Shown one piece after another: positions 12,511-21,033 of a stretch of 64,000 bases of DNA (the first letter of the stretch is position 1; each line of letters opens with the position of its first letter). The DNA is taken from contig CALBDO010000005.1 in assembly GCA_937927515.1 (NCBI GenBank), positions 71,665 to 135,664 on the forward strand. The letters run 5' to 3'. The notes beneath the pieces are model-generated. The model did not search any database and was not told where the DNA came from. It saw only the letters and a program-made list of their open reading frames with translations. The translations under genes were made by a program, and so were the position numbers. The stretch is from Candidatus Kapaibacterium sp. (GTDB lineage: Bacteria; Bacteroidota; Ignavibacteria; Kapaibacteriales; UBA2268).

Positions 12511-12780
12511 ATGAAAGTCAGACCAATTGACGACCGATTACTTATTAAACCAATTGAACCAGAAAGCAAAACTTCTGGTGGAATTATAATTCCTGATACT
12601 GCAAAGGAGAAACCTATTATGGGTGAAGTTGTTGCTGTTGGTACCGACGAGGAGCTCCAAAAGTTATTCAAAGTCGGGGATAAGATAATTTTTGCGAAGT
12701 ATGGTGGGGAGGAGATTACCATTGATGGTCAAGACTATCGCATCATCCAGCGCTCTGATGTATTGGCAATTGTCGAGTAA
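12511..12780 (+). CDS. groES: Co-chaperonin GroES (Hsp10); no groEL follows
   Basis: 89 aa aligning to GroES throughout (IKPIEPESKTSGGIIIP...DILAIVE). An AGGAGG RBS precedes it. A terminator follows directly. Confidence 0.9.
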   Translation: MKVRPIDDRLLIKPIEPESKTSGGIIIPDTAKEKPIMGEVVAVGTDEELQKLFKVGDKIIFAKYGGEEITIDGQDYRIIQRSDVLAIVE

Positions 12781-12854: not shown

Positions 12855-14285
12855 TTAATATCTGTAAGTGAATTGCAAGCCTATCTTGATTGGGGATAGT
12901 TTTATTATGTAGTTTCTGGAGTTTTCATCATCGGTCTCGTAATTAGTACGAAGAACCGAGTTGGTAAGGTACTGGAAAGTTGGTTCGAGTCTTATATTGG
13001 GAGCGAGATAAATTGCTGCGCCCAAGGAGAGAATGTTCGTATTTGCATTTGGGATGTCTTTAACGTATGGCGACGTAATGGAAGAGTACCCAGCACGAAA
13101 TTCCACTGGAAGAATACTCGGAGCGTATTGAATACCCAGACCCCATTGCACCTGGCCAACTAACTCTCGTACTATCTTAGAGTTTAGACGGTCTATCTCG
13201 GGAGGGGCATCGCTAAATCTCAATTGTGTAACATCAAAATATTCAACCCCAGCGGTGAAAATAAAATCAACTACTTTGATGGAGATGCCAGCTGCGTAAA
13301 TAAATGGTGTTGTAATTTTATAAGAATTGTAGGAGTTTTCTTTGGGCTCATAGGGATTTGGTTCCCAGCCATCGTCGAAACGAGCATAAGCATCCTGACG
13401 AAACTCCTCTTCGACTTGGAAATAAGTGGGAAACTTTATAGTGGCTCCGAAACGGAGAAAGTTTTCAAATGTGCCAAAGACACCTAAAGAACCCGAGATA
13501 CCAGATACTTTTTGTGTTAAACTTTCTTTTAAAGAAAATGAATTGAAATCGATATTTGAATAATTTACTGAATCAAAAAAGTTGTATTTATTTTTTATGT
13601 CTATTTCATTGAACTCTCTATTATAGGTAAACCTTCCAAATTTACCCATTATGGTAGCCCCAATTGATACATTTTTGTTCAGTCGTACTGAAAATCCACC
13701 AGTGATGTTGTGTAAGCCACCGTCTTCGTTGACCAATATGTTTTGCTGAACAGAATCTACTACTGGTGTCTTAAACTTATTGTTAGCAAGCCAAAGGAAA
13801 TACGGTATATTTAAAGTTGTATCTTGTGGTCCATACTTAGCCATTGAGTTTATAATAGAACTTTTGGGATTAAATCCAGAGTAGTCGAAATAGTTTTGAA
13901 AGTTGTTTTCGTGGAAGTAACCAATGCCAGCAACGACGTCTTTGCTAAACTCCTTTACCGGTACAACAATGCCGATGTGAGTAAAGTAGCTCGAATTCGA
14001 CTTTCGCTCCATTTTGTTTGATAAGTAATCGCTTTCGGTGATGTTTCGGTTAAATCCTAAGCCAAGTGAAATTTCGCTATGCCCGATGAAGATTAAACCA
14101 GCAGGGTTGAAGAACAAACCAGAAATATCGTCGGAAAGCCCGTAGAAAGCTACACCGAAACTCGAGGCACGAGGGGTAATCATGGAATTGGGTATTGTAT
14201 AACGAAGAGCATCCTCGACAAACTGTGGAAAAATTTCAATATGCCAAAGAGAGATTAATAAGAGAACTAGAAAGATTTTCTTCAT
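12855..14285 (-). CDS. Outer-membrane beta-barrel protein (FadL/PorV-like class, unassigned)
   Basis: Signal peptide MKKIFLVLLLISLW from the internal start. Glycine/aromatic-rich alternating beta-strand composition. C-terminus ...LQFTYRY has an aromatic last residue and alternating hydrophobics, as OMPs do. Its start overlaps the stop of the upstream lipoprotein gene. Confidence 0.6.
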   Translation of the reverse strand: MKKIFLVLLLISLWHIEIFPQFVEDALRYTIPNSMITPRASSFGVAFYGLSDDISGLFFNPAGLIFIGHSEISLGLGFNRNITESDYLSNKMERKSNSSYFTHIGIVVPVKEFSKDVVAGIGYFHENNFQNYFDYSGFNPKSSIINSMAKYGPQDTTLNIPYFLWLANNKFKTPVVDSVQQNILVNEDGGLHNITGGFSVRLNKNVSIGATIMGKFGRFTYNREFNEIDIKNKYNFFDSVNYSNIDFNSFSLKESLTQKVSGISGSLGVFGTFENFLRFGATIKFPTYFQVEEEFRQDAYARFDDGWEPNPYEPKENSYNSYKITTPFIYAAGISIKVVDFIFTAGVEYFDVTQLRFSDAPPEIDRLNSKIVRELVGQVQWGLGIQYAPSILPVEFRAGYSSITSPYVKDIPNANTNILSLGAAIYLAPNIRLEPTFQYLTNSVLRTNYETDDENSRNYIIKLSPIKIGLQFTYRY

Positions 14286-14289
14286 ATTT

Positions 14290-15000
14290 TCACCTTGGTC
14301 TTGTTTGACTTCTATCTTGTTTAGTTTTGGATTCAGACTTTGGCGTTTCATCGGCTTTTGAAGGTTTTTCTGGTAGTTTAGTTTTTACTGGTTCGGTATC
14401 GATTCTTGGGGTATCGGTGGGTTTTGTAACTTGTGTATTTCGTCCCTCGCTGCGTGAACTACTTCGAGTTTCTTTAGTTGGTGTTTCTCTTTTGTCATAA
14501 TCGTAATCACCTCGAGAGGGACCAAAATCCCGCACTCTCCTTTCACGTGGCTTATCTTCCTTAACATCGTATGGAACATATATTATCCTAGACCTTCTAT
14601 CCCACCAATAACTCCAGTATGGTGATGGATAGTAAACACAGTGATGACGTTGGTTGTAAGGTACGTAAATGACATAAGAGTCCCAAAATGGGTCGTAATA
14701 GTTGTTGCCAAAGTATAGGAATAAGTCGATATCAGAGGGGTCGTAGAAGCGAACGTAATTTGGTGCATATGGATAGGGGTAATAGTTGTTGATAATATAA
14801 ACATCGCCAGAGTTATCTGTTTTTTGGTTTATCTTGCGAGAGTAAACATGAGGGGTAGAGTGGTTTGTCTTTTTAAGTGTTTTGTCATATTTAGGTTCGT
14901 TATTATATCCAAAATATTCCTCGCGAAGCTTATTACTCGAAGCGCAGCCAGCGAAAATTAAAAAGGATATTAAAGCAAATAAAAAGAACTTTGTTTTCAT
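14290..15000 (-). CDS. Lipoprotein with a Tyr/Pro/Trp-rich core and a charged low-complexity tail
   Basis: ATG at 15000 with a GGAGGT SD. Lipobox-like FAGC after the signal peptide MKTKFFLFALISFLI. The track's upstream start is a TTG. See findings for composition. Confidence 0.65.
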   Translation of the reverse strand: MKTKFFLFALISFLIFAGCASSNKLREEYFGYNNEPKYDKTLKKTNHSTPHVYSRKINQKTDNSGDVYIINNYYPYPYAPNYVRFYDPSDIDLFLYFGNNYYDPFWDSYVIYVPYNQRHHCVYYPSPYWSYWWDRRSRIIYVPYDVKEDKPRERRVRDFGPSRGDYDYDKRETPTKETRSSSRSEGRNTQVTKPTDTPRIDTEPVKTKLPEKPSKADETPKSESKTKQDRSQTRPR

Positions 15001-15115
15001 TTTACCTCCGAATTGTCTACACAAATTTATACGAATAATTTGAACAAATGTTACAATTAAATTTTCTTTTTTACATATCGTCAATATTTTCTTGAATTAA
15101 AGTGATAAAAATTGT

Positions 15116-19269: not shown

Positions 19270-19836
19270 ATGGCTTACAATTTAGAGAAATTTAGTGATA
19301 ACGACTTATACAATTTGCTTTCAAATGGTGGTAAAGAAAGCGAATTTGCTTTTTTAGAAATATATAGGAGGTACTCTGGAAGGATTTATGCATATTGTAA
19401 AAGATTTCTTGGGAACAAAGAGGATGCTATGGATGTTTTTCAAGATACGTTTGTAAGGTTTTACCATTCCTCGAAAGAAGTGCGTCAAATGTCGAATCTT
19501 TCTGCTTTTCTTTTGAGAATAGCAAAGAACTTGTGCTTAAATTATTTAAGACAAAAGAAGCAGTCCCTCGAAGTCGAGGATTACATGTCCCATATTGATA
19601 TTGAAAATCAGAACGATACCAATGAGATGTTGAAATTAATTCATGATGCAATAAATCAGTTGCCGGATGATTATCGCGAGATTTTCATTCTTCGTGAATA
19701 TCAAGGCATGAGTTACAATGAGATTGCACAGCATTTGAATATTTCGCTTTCTTTAGTAAAGGTTCGTCTCTTTCGAGCAAAAGAAAAGCTTCGTGAAATA
19801 CTTGCTCCAGTTATTTCCGAGTTGTCTAAATTTTAA
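19270..19836 (+). CDS. ECF (sigma-70 family) RNA polymerase sigma factor
   Basis: 188 aa. Region 2 (DAMDVFQDTFVRFY) and region 4 HTH (YREIFILREYQGMSYNEIAQHLNISLSLVKVRLFRAKEKL). Confidence 0.9.
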   Translation: MAYNLEKFSDNDLYNLLSNGGKESEFAFLEIYRRYSGRIYAYCKRFLGNKEDAMDVFQDTFVRFYHSSKEVRQMSNLSAFLLRIAKNLCLNYLRQKKQSLEVEDYMSHIDIENQNDTNEMLKLIHDAINQLPDDYREIFILREYQGMSYNEIAQHLNISLSLVKVRLFRAKEKLREILAPVISELSKF

Positions 19837-19845
19837 GGAGGTTCG

Positions 19846-21033
19846 ATGGAATTAAACAAGAATTTAGAACAGATTATTGAATATTTAGATGGTGAGTTGC
19901 CAATAACAGAAGAACAAGAATTGTTCTCTGCACTGGCTAAAAGTGAGCCTTTGCGAAATGCAATGCGTGATTATTTAACTCTGTCTCGTGCAATTCATTA
20001 TGATGCCGTTTCTTTTCAACCGCCCCCAGAAGCTACAATGAACATATTTACAAAATTGGGAATTCAAAATATAGACTATTTAAACTCTCCATCTCCAAAG
20101 ACTTTCTCAAGTAAAACAAAGAAATTTGTTCTCCCAATTTTGTTTGCTTTGGTTTCTTCTTTGGGGACTTTTCTGGCAACTTATTATTTCTTTAACAAAA
20201 ATCAGCATGTTCCTTACACTTCGAGAGCAATCGTACAAGCTCCTCCAATAATTATTTCCTCTGTGCAAAATGAAAATATAAATTCCTCATTAAACACAAA
20301 TGCATTTCTTAATACCTTTCCAAATAGAAATGCAATTCAAAACTCTAACGCAGGAAATGTTTTGACTTTGCAAACCAACGATGCAAAGCCAATAGCCAGT
20401 TTGTTGGAAACGTCTCATTTTAAAGCAAATGCTTTGGGTGAAGCTACCCTCAACAAAGATGATTACTCAAATGATTTTTACCAAACAACTTTTCAACAAG
20501 ATAAAGAGATAATTAAACTTAGTATTCCCAAACCAAAGAATATTTTCTTTACCATTCGTGGCATTGTAGCAAAATCTTTTCCAGACCCAGATATCGTTCC
20601 CAAAGGAACTGAAAAGCTATTTTCAAATTTGAGTGCTGGTTTGTATTTTACACAGTGGGATAATATTAAATTTGGTATAGAATTTGGCAATGAAATTTTT
20701 GGTTTGAATTATCAAAATATGAAAGATGGTATAGAATTTACATACGAGCAAAAACCGAATTTGTACTGGGCTGCTGTTGGAGTTGATTATACTGTTCCGA
20801 AAGAACTAATGCAGATTCCAAACATTTACCCGTTTACAACAATTCTTGCTGGTGGTTCTCAGATTGGAGGTCCTTTGTTGAAAGGGTTATTTGGCTTGCG
20901 TTATAGGCCGTTCAACTCTAATTTTGAAATCTACCTTGCAACAGAGGGCACTTTATTGTTTTATCAAAATCAGAAAAAAAATTTTCTGTCCCGAAAATTC
21001 GGTTTAACTTATGGAATGTCGGTTATTTTTTAA
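19846..21033 (+). CDS. Putative membrane-anchored anti-sigma factor with a C-terminal beta-barrel-like domain
   Basis: Lies 9 bp after the sigma gene behind a GGAGG RBS. The N-terminal ~60 aa follow the anti-sigma pattern (IEYLDGELP...AMRDYL) but lack Zn ligands. One TM helix (FVLPILFALVSSLGTFLATYYFF). After an N/S/Q-rich linker the C-terminus has alternating aromatic strands ending ...LTYGMSVIF. Confidence 0.6.
   Translation: MELNKNLEQIIEYLDGELPITEEQELFSALAKSEPLRNAMRDYLTLSRAIHYDAVSFQPPPEATMNIFTKLGIQNIDYLNSPSPKTFSSKTKKFVLPILFALVSSLGTFLATYYFFNKNQHVPYTSRAIVQAPPIIISSVQNENINSSLNTNAFLNTFPNRNAIQNSNAGNVLTLQTNDAKPIASLLETSHFKANALGEATLNKDDYSNDFYQTTFQQDKEIIKLSIPKPKNIFFTIRGIVAKSFPDPDIVPKGTEKLFSNLSAGLYFTQWDNIKFGIEFGNEIFGLNYQNMKDGIEFTYEQKPNLYWAAVGVDYTVPKELMQIPNIYPFTTILAGGSQIGGPLLKGLFGLRYRPFNSNFEIYLATEGTLLFYQNQKKNFLSRKFGLTYGMSVIF

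Follow-up and report, generated by a model that had tools for sequence, protein, structure and literature searches.

The locus considered here raises the question of whether a lipoprotein and an outer-membrane β-barrel encoded side by side belong together and, if so, what they do. It occupies positions 12855-15000 of a 64,000-nt stretch of Candidatus Kapaibacterium sp. DNA (the window, i.e., the whole stretch analysed), where two intact open reading frames (ORFs) lie in the same orientation on the minus strand, the lipoprotein gene upstream of the barrel gene. The two proteins are very likely a dedicated functional pair, as the first-pass annotation of the sequence had proposed, because the same lipoprotein architecture is encoded immediately upstream of the orthologous barrel in at least 63 of the 79 loci with a scorable upstream ORF (window included), across phylum-level divergence and while the flanking genes change. 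These loci were obtained by scanning species-representative genomes with the N-terminal signature of the barrel, which returned 80. In the paired loci, the genes share a strand, are usually 2-30 nt apart, and the upstream product has a lipobox and, behind it, a block rich in aromatic residues and a cationic polar tail. Six further loci are cut by contig ends, N runs, or a possible frameshift, and their remnants are consistent with the lipoprotein. An unrelated upstream gene in relatives and a frameshift splitting the lipoprotein ORF were the two outcomes named beforehand as fatal to the pairing. The upstream gene of the relatives is not unrelated, and there is no frameshift, since the lipoprotein homologues align end to end (over 92-100% of the length in 20 clusters; alignment A3).

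The closest relatives of both proteins are encoded by metagenome-assembled genomes of Candidatus Kapaibacteria/Kapabacteria, within the Fibrobacterota-Chlorobiota-Bacteroidota (FCB) group. The pair is present in Kapaibacteria, Ignavibacteria, and four orders of Bacteroidota, with loci in Bacteroidales (L072), Sphingobacteriales (L079), Flavobacteriaceae (L080, L081), and Cytophagales (Botryobacter ruber, L082), and also in L083, a locus with a GldD-type lipoprotein (Pfam GldD_lipo). All Bacteroidota loci have proS in divergent orientation upstream of the lipoprotein gene. A second barrel search of a large database with a broad profile added few taxa among its best 8000 candidates. A subclade labelled Kapaibacteria or 'Chlorobiota' (L022, L030, L039, L073) has an alanine dehydrogenase gene directly upstream of the barrel and no aromatic-rich ORF within ±5 kb; in this subclade, the lipoprotein partner has either moved or been lost.

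Membership in the wider lipoprotein family was defined by synteny, architecture, and hhalign comparison. Sequence searches of the lipoprotein against Pfam, NCBIfam, and PDB gave no matches, nor did those of five divergent relatives. An exhaustive hidden Markov model (HMM) search of 1.84 billion representatives with a short-clade profile retrieved only 49 proteins at E ≤ 1e-3, indicating few sequence-detectable relatives, and did not reach the Bacteroidota lipoproteins. Comparison of the lipoprotein cores by hhalign gave probabilities of 94% (E 2e-7) for the Kapaibacteria against the Ignavibacteria type, 73% (E 3e-5) for the Ignavibacteria against the Bacteroidota type, and 27% (E 7e-4) for the Kapaibacteria against the Bacteroidota type. 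Column-shuffled controls stayed below 0.5%, so the similarity of the cores depends on residue order and goes beyond composition.

The barrel was modelled by AlphaFold2 from 40 homologues with a predicted local distance difference test (pLDDT) score of 90.5 and a predicted template modelling (pTM) score of 0.83. N-terminal helices are followed by the strands of the barrel, and the model has the 14-stranded β-barrel and N-terminal hatch domain of the OMPP1/FadL/TodX superfamily (PF03349). The top Foldseek matches were the BamG proteins of B. thetaiotaomicron (Bt; E = 4e-19) and F. johnsoniae (Fj; 2.5e-17), with FadL homologues next. The structural-comparison figures were 30.2 for Fj BamG, 30.1 for E. 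coli FadL, 29.6 for Pg BamG, 28.9 for a P. aeruginosa FadL homologue, 28.8 for TodX, 28.3 for Bt BamG, and 26.7 for PorV; the modelled barrel is thus structurally equidistant from BamG, FadL, and TodX. The protein scored 22.2 bits against Pfam Toluene_X (PF03349; gathering cut-off 29.7), although some homologues have a precomputed PF03349 match. Its best NCBIfam match was BamG (NF053685 equivalog), with 44.9 bits against a cut-off of 250. Distant members of the barrel family scored at most 30-53 bits for BamG (30 in the Flavobacteriaceae member), and some had no BamG match. Identity with PorV was rejected on a score of 23.7 bits for PorV_fam (NF033709) against a cut-off of 90. The family profile itself matched TbuX at E = 7e-15, CymD and FadL at about 1e-8 to 1e-9, and more weakly Bt BamG (1e-6) and PorV (8e-5). 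By fold and profile, the barrel represents a lineage of its own in the FadL superfamily and is not BamG, PorV, or FadL proper. Its earlier description as FadL/PorV-like therefore holds at the level of the superfamily, and the earlier statement that neither protein can be assigned agrees with the HMM searches, in which neither reached the threshold of a named family.

The conservation of the barrel is most evident at its mature N-terminus and in the hatch. The signal peptide, MKKIFLVLLLISLWHIEIFP, would be cleaved directly before QFVEDALRY. The N-terminus is about 11 residues longer than that of E. coli FadL, whose residue 10 aligns to profile position 41, and about 20 mature residues precede the ARxxGxG motif, compared with nine in FadL. 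An extended conserved N-terminus relative to FadL is a feature of BamG; PorV has the same, so the feature is not specific to BamG. At the first mature position, Q21 (14223-14225), the whole family shares the Gln found in PorV. Under the Bacteroidetes 'Q-rule', an N-terminal pyroglutamate follows signal peptidase I (SPI) cleavage, and the invariant Q21 fits this rule. In the hatch, N60-P61-A62 do not vary in sets of 40 and 23 sequences and align with the NPA of FadL and TbuX.

The lipoprotein differs from the barrel in having hardly any predicted structure. The ORF and the full-length alignments agree with the intact 236-aa lipoprotein with a FAGC lipobox described in the first-pass annotation. 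Cys19 is invariant in alignment A3, 67 family members have a lipobox, and the protein has the features of a signal peptidase II (SPII) substrate. The aromatic-rich core reported earlier was also recovered: residues 67-150 consist of 32% Tyr+Trp+Phe (Tyr 22.6%, Pro 10.7%) and form the top 84-aa aromatic window among the window's 38 ORFs with 200 aa or more. The segment 151-236 is 86% S/T/P/K/R/E/D/Q/N and 45% charged, with a net charge of +7. The AlphaFold2 model (20 homologues) had a pLDDT of 45 and showed secondary structure only in the signal peptide, so the whole mature lipoprotein is predicted to be disordered. The charged, disordered tail of about 80 aa proposed at first sight is accordingly supported by its composition, while the restriction of disorder to that tail is not.

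Within this chain, short motifs are conserved. The tail contains RDFGPSRG (14509-14532), TPTKExRSSSR, EPVKxKLPEK, and a C-terminal TKQ[DE]RSxTRPR; the immediate clade keeps all of them strongly, the last as TKQERSSTRPR, together with C-x6-8-[DE]YFGYNNxP and two [VI]IYVPY segments. Among 65 members, the aromatic block has a median length of 95 aa, and the tails range from 81 to 426 aa with a net charge of +3 to +52, which is positive in 65/65 scored members. The window lipoprotein is the minimal version of this family architecture.

On which side of the outer membrane the lipoprotein resides can be judged from the residues behind the lipidated Cys, as the rule applied to surface lipoproteins is two or more acidic residues among the six that follow it (PMC12578637). 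None of the 67 family lipoproteins has such a signal: 54 have no acidic residue in this region and 13 have one. The window lipoprotein has none up to +6, and it lacks the C-terminal domain of the type IX secretion system (T9SS). Given the missing export signal in the 67 members and the published class of the F. johnsoniae protein Fjoh_4940, the probable position of the lipoprotein is periplasmic, with an anchor in the outer membrane's inner leaflet, and not on the cell surface. Both observations speak against the initial analogy with a surface lipoprotein (PMC12045153 for the class of Fjoh_4940).

For a probable counterpart, the F. johnsoniae locus, the published data are limited to changes in proteomic abundance. 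Fjoh_4939 (proline-tRNA ligase), Fjoh_4940 (an SPII "periplasm-facing lipoprotein"), and Fjoh_4941 (an OMPP1/FadL/TodX barrel) are adjacent (PMC12045153 supplement). The proS-lipoprotein-barrel order is that of all Bacteroidota loci and the signal types match (SPII, SPI), whereas the Kapaibacteria pair adjoins mnmA and groES instead of proS. It is reported that upon depletion of TamL, the Fjoh_4941 barrel rises 5.6-fold and the Fjoh_4940 lipoprotein 2.6-fold, and that the barrel decreases in vesicles (0.4-fold); the sole comment of the authors is that the closeness of Fjoh_4940/4941 may point to a functional connection (PMC12045153). BamG and BamG2 of F. johnsoniae are Fjoh_1412 and Fjoh_1686. 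The proS-linked Fjoh_4941 is therefore a third, separate FadL-like protein; the supplements of the paper on the β-barrel assembly machinery (BAM) contain no mention of Fjoh_4940 or Fjoh_4941. Our best guess is that Fjoh_4940/4941, as the counterpart by synteny, behaves as part of an envelope/lipid-homeostasis response.

The lipoprotein and barrel genes make up one operon, with probable translational coupling. The lipoprotein gene starts with an ATG at 15000 that is preceded by GGAGG. The barrel starts at ATG 14285 (MKKIFLV...), which is the conserved start among 40 and 21 homologues (alignments A1 and A4) and supplies the signal peptide. An upstream barrel start, ATG 14351 (498 aa, 62-nt overlap), was rejected because the homologue alignments give it no support. 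With the conserved ATG 14285, the lipoprotein stop does not overlap the barrel start, as first thought, and a 4-nt spacer separates them. The public gene calls are the longest ORFs (P0001, 264 aa from a TTG at 15084; P0021, 498 aa from ATG 14351), which creates an artefactual 62-nt gene overlap. Relatives share a junction of 2-5 nt with a terminal AGG/AGA Arg codon, typically …AGA CCN AGG TAA nn ATG in Kapaibacteria. AGR makes up 72% of the Arg codons among the last five lipoprotein codons, compared with 51% across the remaining tail. Judged from codon usage, this AGR-rich end would fit a ribosome-binding site inside the end of the upstream gene and hence translational coupling. Besides the ribosome-binding site of the barrel, the conserved R-x-R C-terminus argues for a constraint at the protein level too, as third positions change synonymously and a basic C-terminus is kept in Bacteroidota loci with gaps of 19-100 nt.

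Taken together, our preferred reading, with a probability of roughly 40%, is a FadL-type channel with a disordered periplasmic lipoprotein partner and a role in handling a hydrophobic substrate or in envelope homeostasis. The two proteins would form a two-component outer-membrane module that may be ancient in the FCB group. In the mature lipoprotein, a short polar linker leads to the conserved acidic-aromatic motif, then to the Tyr/Trp/Pro-rich block of about 85-95 aa, and finally to the net-cationic Ser/Thr/Arg/Lys-rich tail. The N-proximal motif and the lipid anchor may dock the lipoprotein beside or beneath the barrel. A hydrophobic molecule, such as a lipid or fatty acid, would pass the barrel by FadL-type lateral diffusion, and the aromatic block and cationic tail on the periplasmic side may hand off or sequester this cargo. 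Alternatively, block and tail may hold the module against anionic peptidoglycan or inner-membrane surfaces.

Several points weigh against this reading. About 10 loci have no lipoprotein gene within ±5 kb, so the adjacency of lipoprotein and barrel is not obligatory. The barrel lies below the Toluene_X gathering score (22.2 against 29.7 bits), and its extended conserved N-terminus resembles those of the non-transporters BamG and PorV, unlike that of FadL. The complex of lipoprotein and barrel is deduced, the structure models being of single chains. Bacteroidota, not Kapaibacteria, are the source of the export-signal rule. The orthology to Fjoh_4940/4941 is a matter of synteny, and the rise upon TamL depletion might reflect stress in general.

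In a quite unlikely alternative, the barrel would be the Kapaibacterial BamG or a paralogue of BamG and would bind BamA or the BamA-like TamL, and the lipoprotein would be a BamH-like partner whose lipidated N-terminus is wedged at the lateral opening of the barrel. BamG is indeed the best NCBIfam match (45 bits), the conserved N-terminal extension of about 11 residues has been described for BamG (PMC12578637), BamG2 and BamH2 are likewise an operon pair, the lipoprotein resembles BamH in having a conserved segment right behind the lipid anchor, and the pair responds to TamL depletion (PMC12045153; F. johnsoniae counterpart by synteny). However, 45 bits is far from the cut-off of 250, with only 30 in the Flavobacteriaceae member, and TbuX and FadL outscore BamG at the sequence-profile level. 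F. johnsoniae already has BamG (Fjoh_1412) and BamG2 (Fjoh_1686), and only five named subunits, Fjoh_4941 not among them, co-purified with BamA in the Fj BAM preparation from the literature, which lists BamA, D, G, H, M, and P. The lipoprotein also lacks an export signal and a BamH-like fold. The missing export signal, together with the missing T9SS C-terminal domain, also speaks against the idea that the lipoprotein is a cargo displayed by the barrel, its disordered hydrophilic chain threaded via the lumen or lateral opening to the surface as in RcsF-OmpA or PorV/PorP-type anchoring. A fully disordered chain could thread a pore, the cargo gene comes first and is tightly coupled to the barrel gene, the barrel has a weak N-terminal similarity to PorV_fam, and BamA of Bacteroidota exposes on the cell exterior a disordered loop rich in Tyr, Gly, and Asn (PMC12578637). 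Since the barrel keeps the NPA hatch plugging the lumen and Fjoh_4940 is classed as periplasm-facing (PMC12045153), such display is considered rather improbable.

The composition of the lipoprotein would also suit a tether between outer membrane and peptidoglycan, with the aromatic block attached to glycan strands and the cationic tail to anionic peptidoglycan or membrane, or a periplasmic gel formed by Tyr-Arg 'sticker' self-association, with the barrel serving mainly as an anchor. The conserved two-block design (Tyr/Trp-rich, then Arg/Lys-rich), the net positive charge of all tails over lengths of 81-426 aa, and the probably periplasmic orientation favour this possibility. To our knowledge, Bacteroidota are also without an Lpp homologue, which would leave room for such a tether. 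The reasoning is purely compositional, no binding domain was detected, and the FadL transport signatures of the barrel, including the invariant NPA, would be left unexplained, so that a tether or gel also has a low probability. Least credible by far is an ordinary FadL fatty-acid importer next to a functionally unrelated gene: homologues are annotated as 'long-subunit fatty acid transport protein' or OmpP1/FadL and some loci are without the lipoprotein, yet the pair is kept across classes and phyla while the flanks vary, the junction is coupled at 2-5 nt, and both proteins are co-regulated in F. johnsoniae (PMC12045153; counterpart by synteny). A bolder extension of the preferred channel-and-partner reading, unlikely but deserving mention, is that this third conserved FadL-like barrel and its disordered lipoprotein form an unrecognised core outer-membrane complex of the FCB superphylum. 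The 'sticker' grammar of the lipoprotein (Tyr/Trp-rich, Arg-rich) is like that of phase-separating proteins and might create a membrane-tethered disordered phase or conduit in the periplasm, for handling lipids, lipoproteins, or hydrophobic molecules in the space from outer membrane to cell wall. We know of no precedent for such a periplasmic disordered-phase mechanism among the described bacterial envelope systems.

The features of the locus are listed in Table 1.

Table 1. Sequence features of the lipoprotein-barrel locus in window coordinates.
Feature	Position	Strand	Details and basis
Lipoprotein CDS	14290..15000	(-)	236 aa, TGA stop 14292-14290; ORF, full-length homologues
Type II signal peptide and lipobox, MKTKFFLFALISFLIFAG-C	14944..15000	(-)	FAGC at residues 16-19
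N-proximal acidic-aromatic motif REEYFGYNNEPKY	14887..14925	(-)	Consensus C-x6-10-[DE]Y[FY]GYNNxP; alignments
Aromatic block, residues 67-150	14551..14802	(-)	Two [VI]IYVPY[ND] segments; predicted unstructured
Charged net-cationic tail, residues 151-236	14293..14550	(-)	Composition, conserved short motifs
Gene junction	14283..14296	(-)	AAGGTGA-aaat-ATG; Shine-Dalgarno-like sequence over lipoprotein stop; 4-nt spacer
Barrel CDS	12855..14285	(-)	476 aa, signal peptide 14226-14285, FadL-superfamily 14-stranded outer-membrane barrel
Mature N-terminus of barrel, QFVEDALRY	14199..14225	(-)	Invariant; family motif Q[FY][IV]EDALR; invariant columns Q21, D25, A26, R28
NPAG, FadL-family NPA hatch motif	14097..14108	(-)	N60, P61, A62 invariant
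TAAATTTG, candidate Bacteroidota-type -7 promoter box	15022..15029	(-)	22 nt upstream of lipoprotein ATG; pattern enrichment

The candidate promoter box belongs to a pattern, TAnnTTTG, that occurs 132 times in the window compared with 85.5±9.8 expected copies, a number reached in 0/100 shuffles. No such box was found on the minus strand between the lipoprotein and barrel starts, and the lone box upstream of the lipoprotein gene would weakly support a single transcript. The enrichment of this pattern, along with the GGAGG before the lipoprotein gene, suggests that Kapaibacterium may use Bacteroidota-like promoters alongside Shine-Dalgarno sequences. Scans for σ70 promoters and intrinsic terminators found nothing exceeding chance.

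The pair is flanked by housekeeping genes, with metH, glutaredoxin, and groES on one side and the divergent mnmA on the other; the mnmA and groES flanks are kept only in the nearest relatives. The groES gene (Cpn10, 96 bits) at 12511-12780 (+) is followed by the convergent barrel gene and not by groEL, an arrangement also found in the close relatives L002-L007. Elsewhere in the window (19270-21033, +), an ORF for an extracytoplasmic function (ECF)-type sigma factor precedes one of 395 aa that contains a single hydrophobic segment. The C-terminus of the latter, …YGMSVIF, resembles an outer-membrane β-signal and there is no Pfam match; the protein may be an unusual anti-sigma factor or resemble an outer-membrane protein.

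Literature searches covering FadL together with disordered or tyrosine-rich lipoproteins, PorV2, and the outer membrane of Kapabacteria turned up no description of the pair beyond one passing remark (PMC12045153). A 'tyrosine-rich' match in PMC12578637 was rejected, as it concerns extracellular loop 3 (EL3) of BamA and not this lipoprotein. EL3 of Bt BamA is a flexible, Tyr/Gly/Asn-rich loop of 38 residues (PMC12578637) and a compositional echo of the aromatic block; Tyr-rich disordered segments may be used more widely in FCB envelopes. As far as the searched literature goes, new are a barrel lineage in a known superfamily, an unassigned lipoprotein family, and their FCB-wide pairing with a linkage to proS. 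Two hallmark machineries of Bacteroidota have lately been found to contain a FadL-like barrel at their core, BAM with BamG and T9SS with PorV. The present finding points to a third FadL-like barrel lineage that extends from Kapaibacteria to Flavobacteriia and Bacteroidales, in most cases with a dedicated disordered lipoprotein. The probable counterpart Fjoh_4940/4941 is expressed, genetically tractable, and responsive to the loss of the lipid/outer-membrane protein factor TamL, which makes the pair directly testable, and it could inform how lipids and lipoproteins move through the envelope of Bacteroidota. For annotation, the barrel can be recognised by a mature start of Q[FY][IV]EDALR, and the upstream lipoprotein by C-x6-10-[DE]Y[FY]GYNN in Kapaibacteria or EYDD[LM]YY in Bacteroidota, followed by the aromatic block and the cationic tail.

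Among the known systems, BamG/BamH (PDB 9n2d_B, 9hiv_F; PMC12611786, PMC12578637) differ in that BamG shares only 11-18% identity with the barrel, which scores 45 bits against the cut-off of 250. In contrast to BamH, the lipoprotein is disordered and has no export signal, and Bacteroidota possess the pair besides BamG and BamG2. For FadL, TodX, and TbuX, we know of no dedicated lipoprotein partner. The barrel departs from E. coli FadL and TodX/TbuX (PDB 1t16, 3brz, 3bry; PF03349) by its sub-threshold score, its N-terminal extension of about 11 residues, and the dedicated lipoprotein. PorV, the T9SS shuttle (PDB 6h3i_F), is likewise a FadL-like barrel of this superphylum, and its N-terminus, of about the same length, also starts with Gln (QDIER... 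vs. QFVEDALR).

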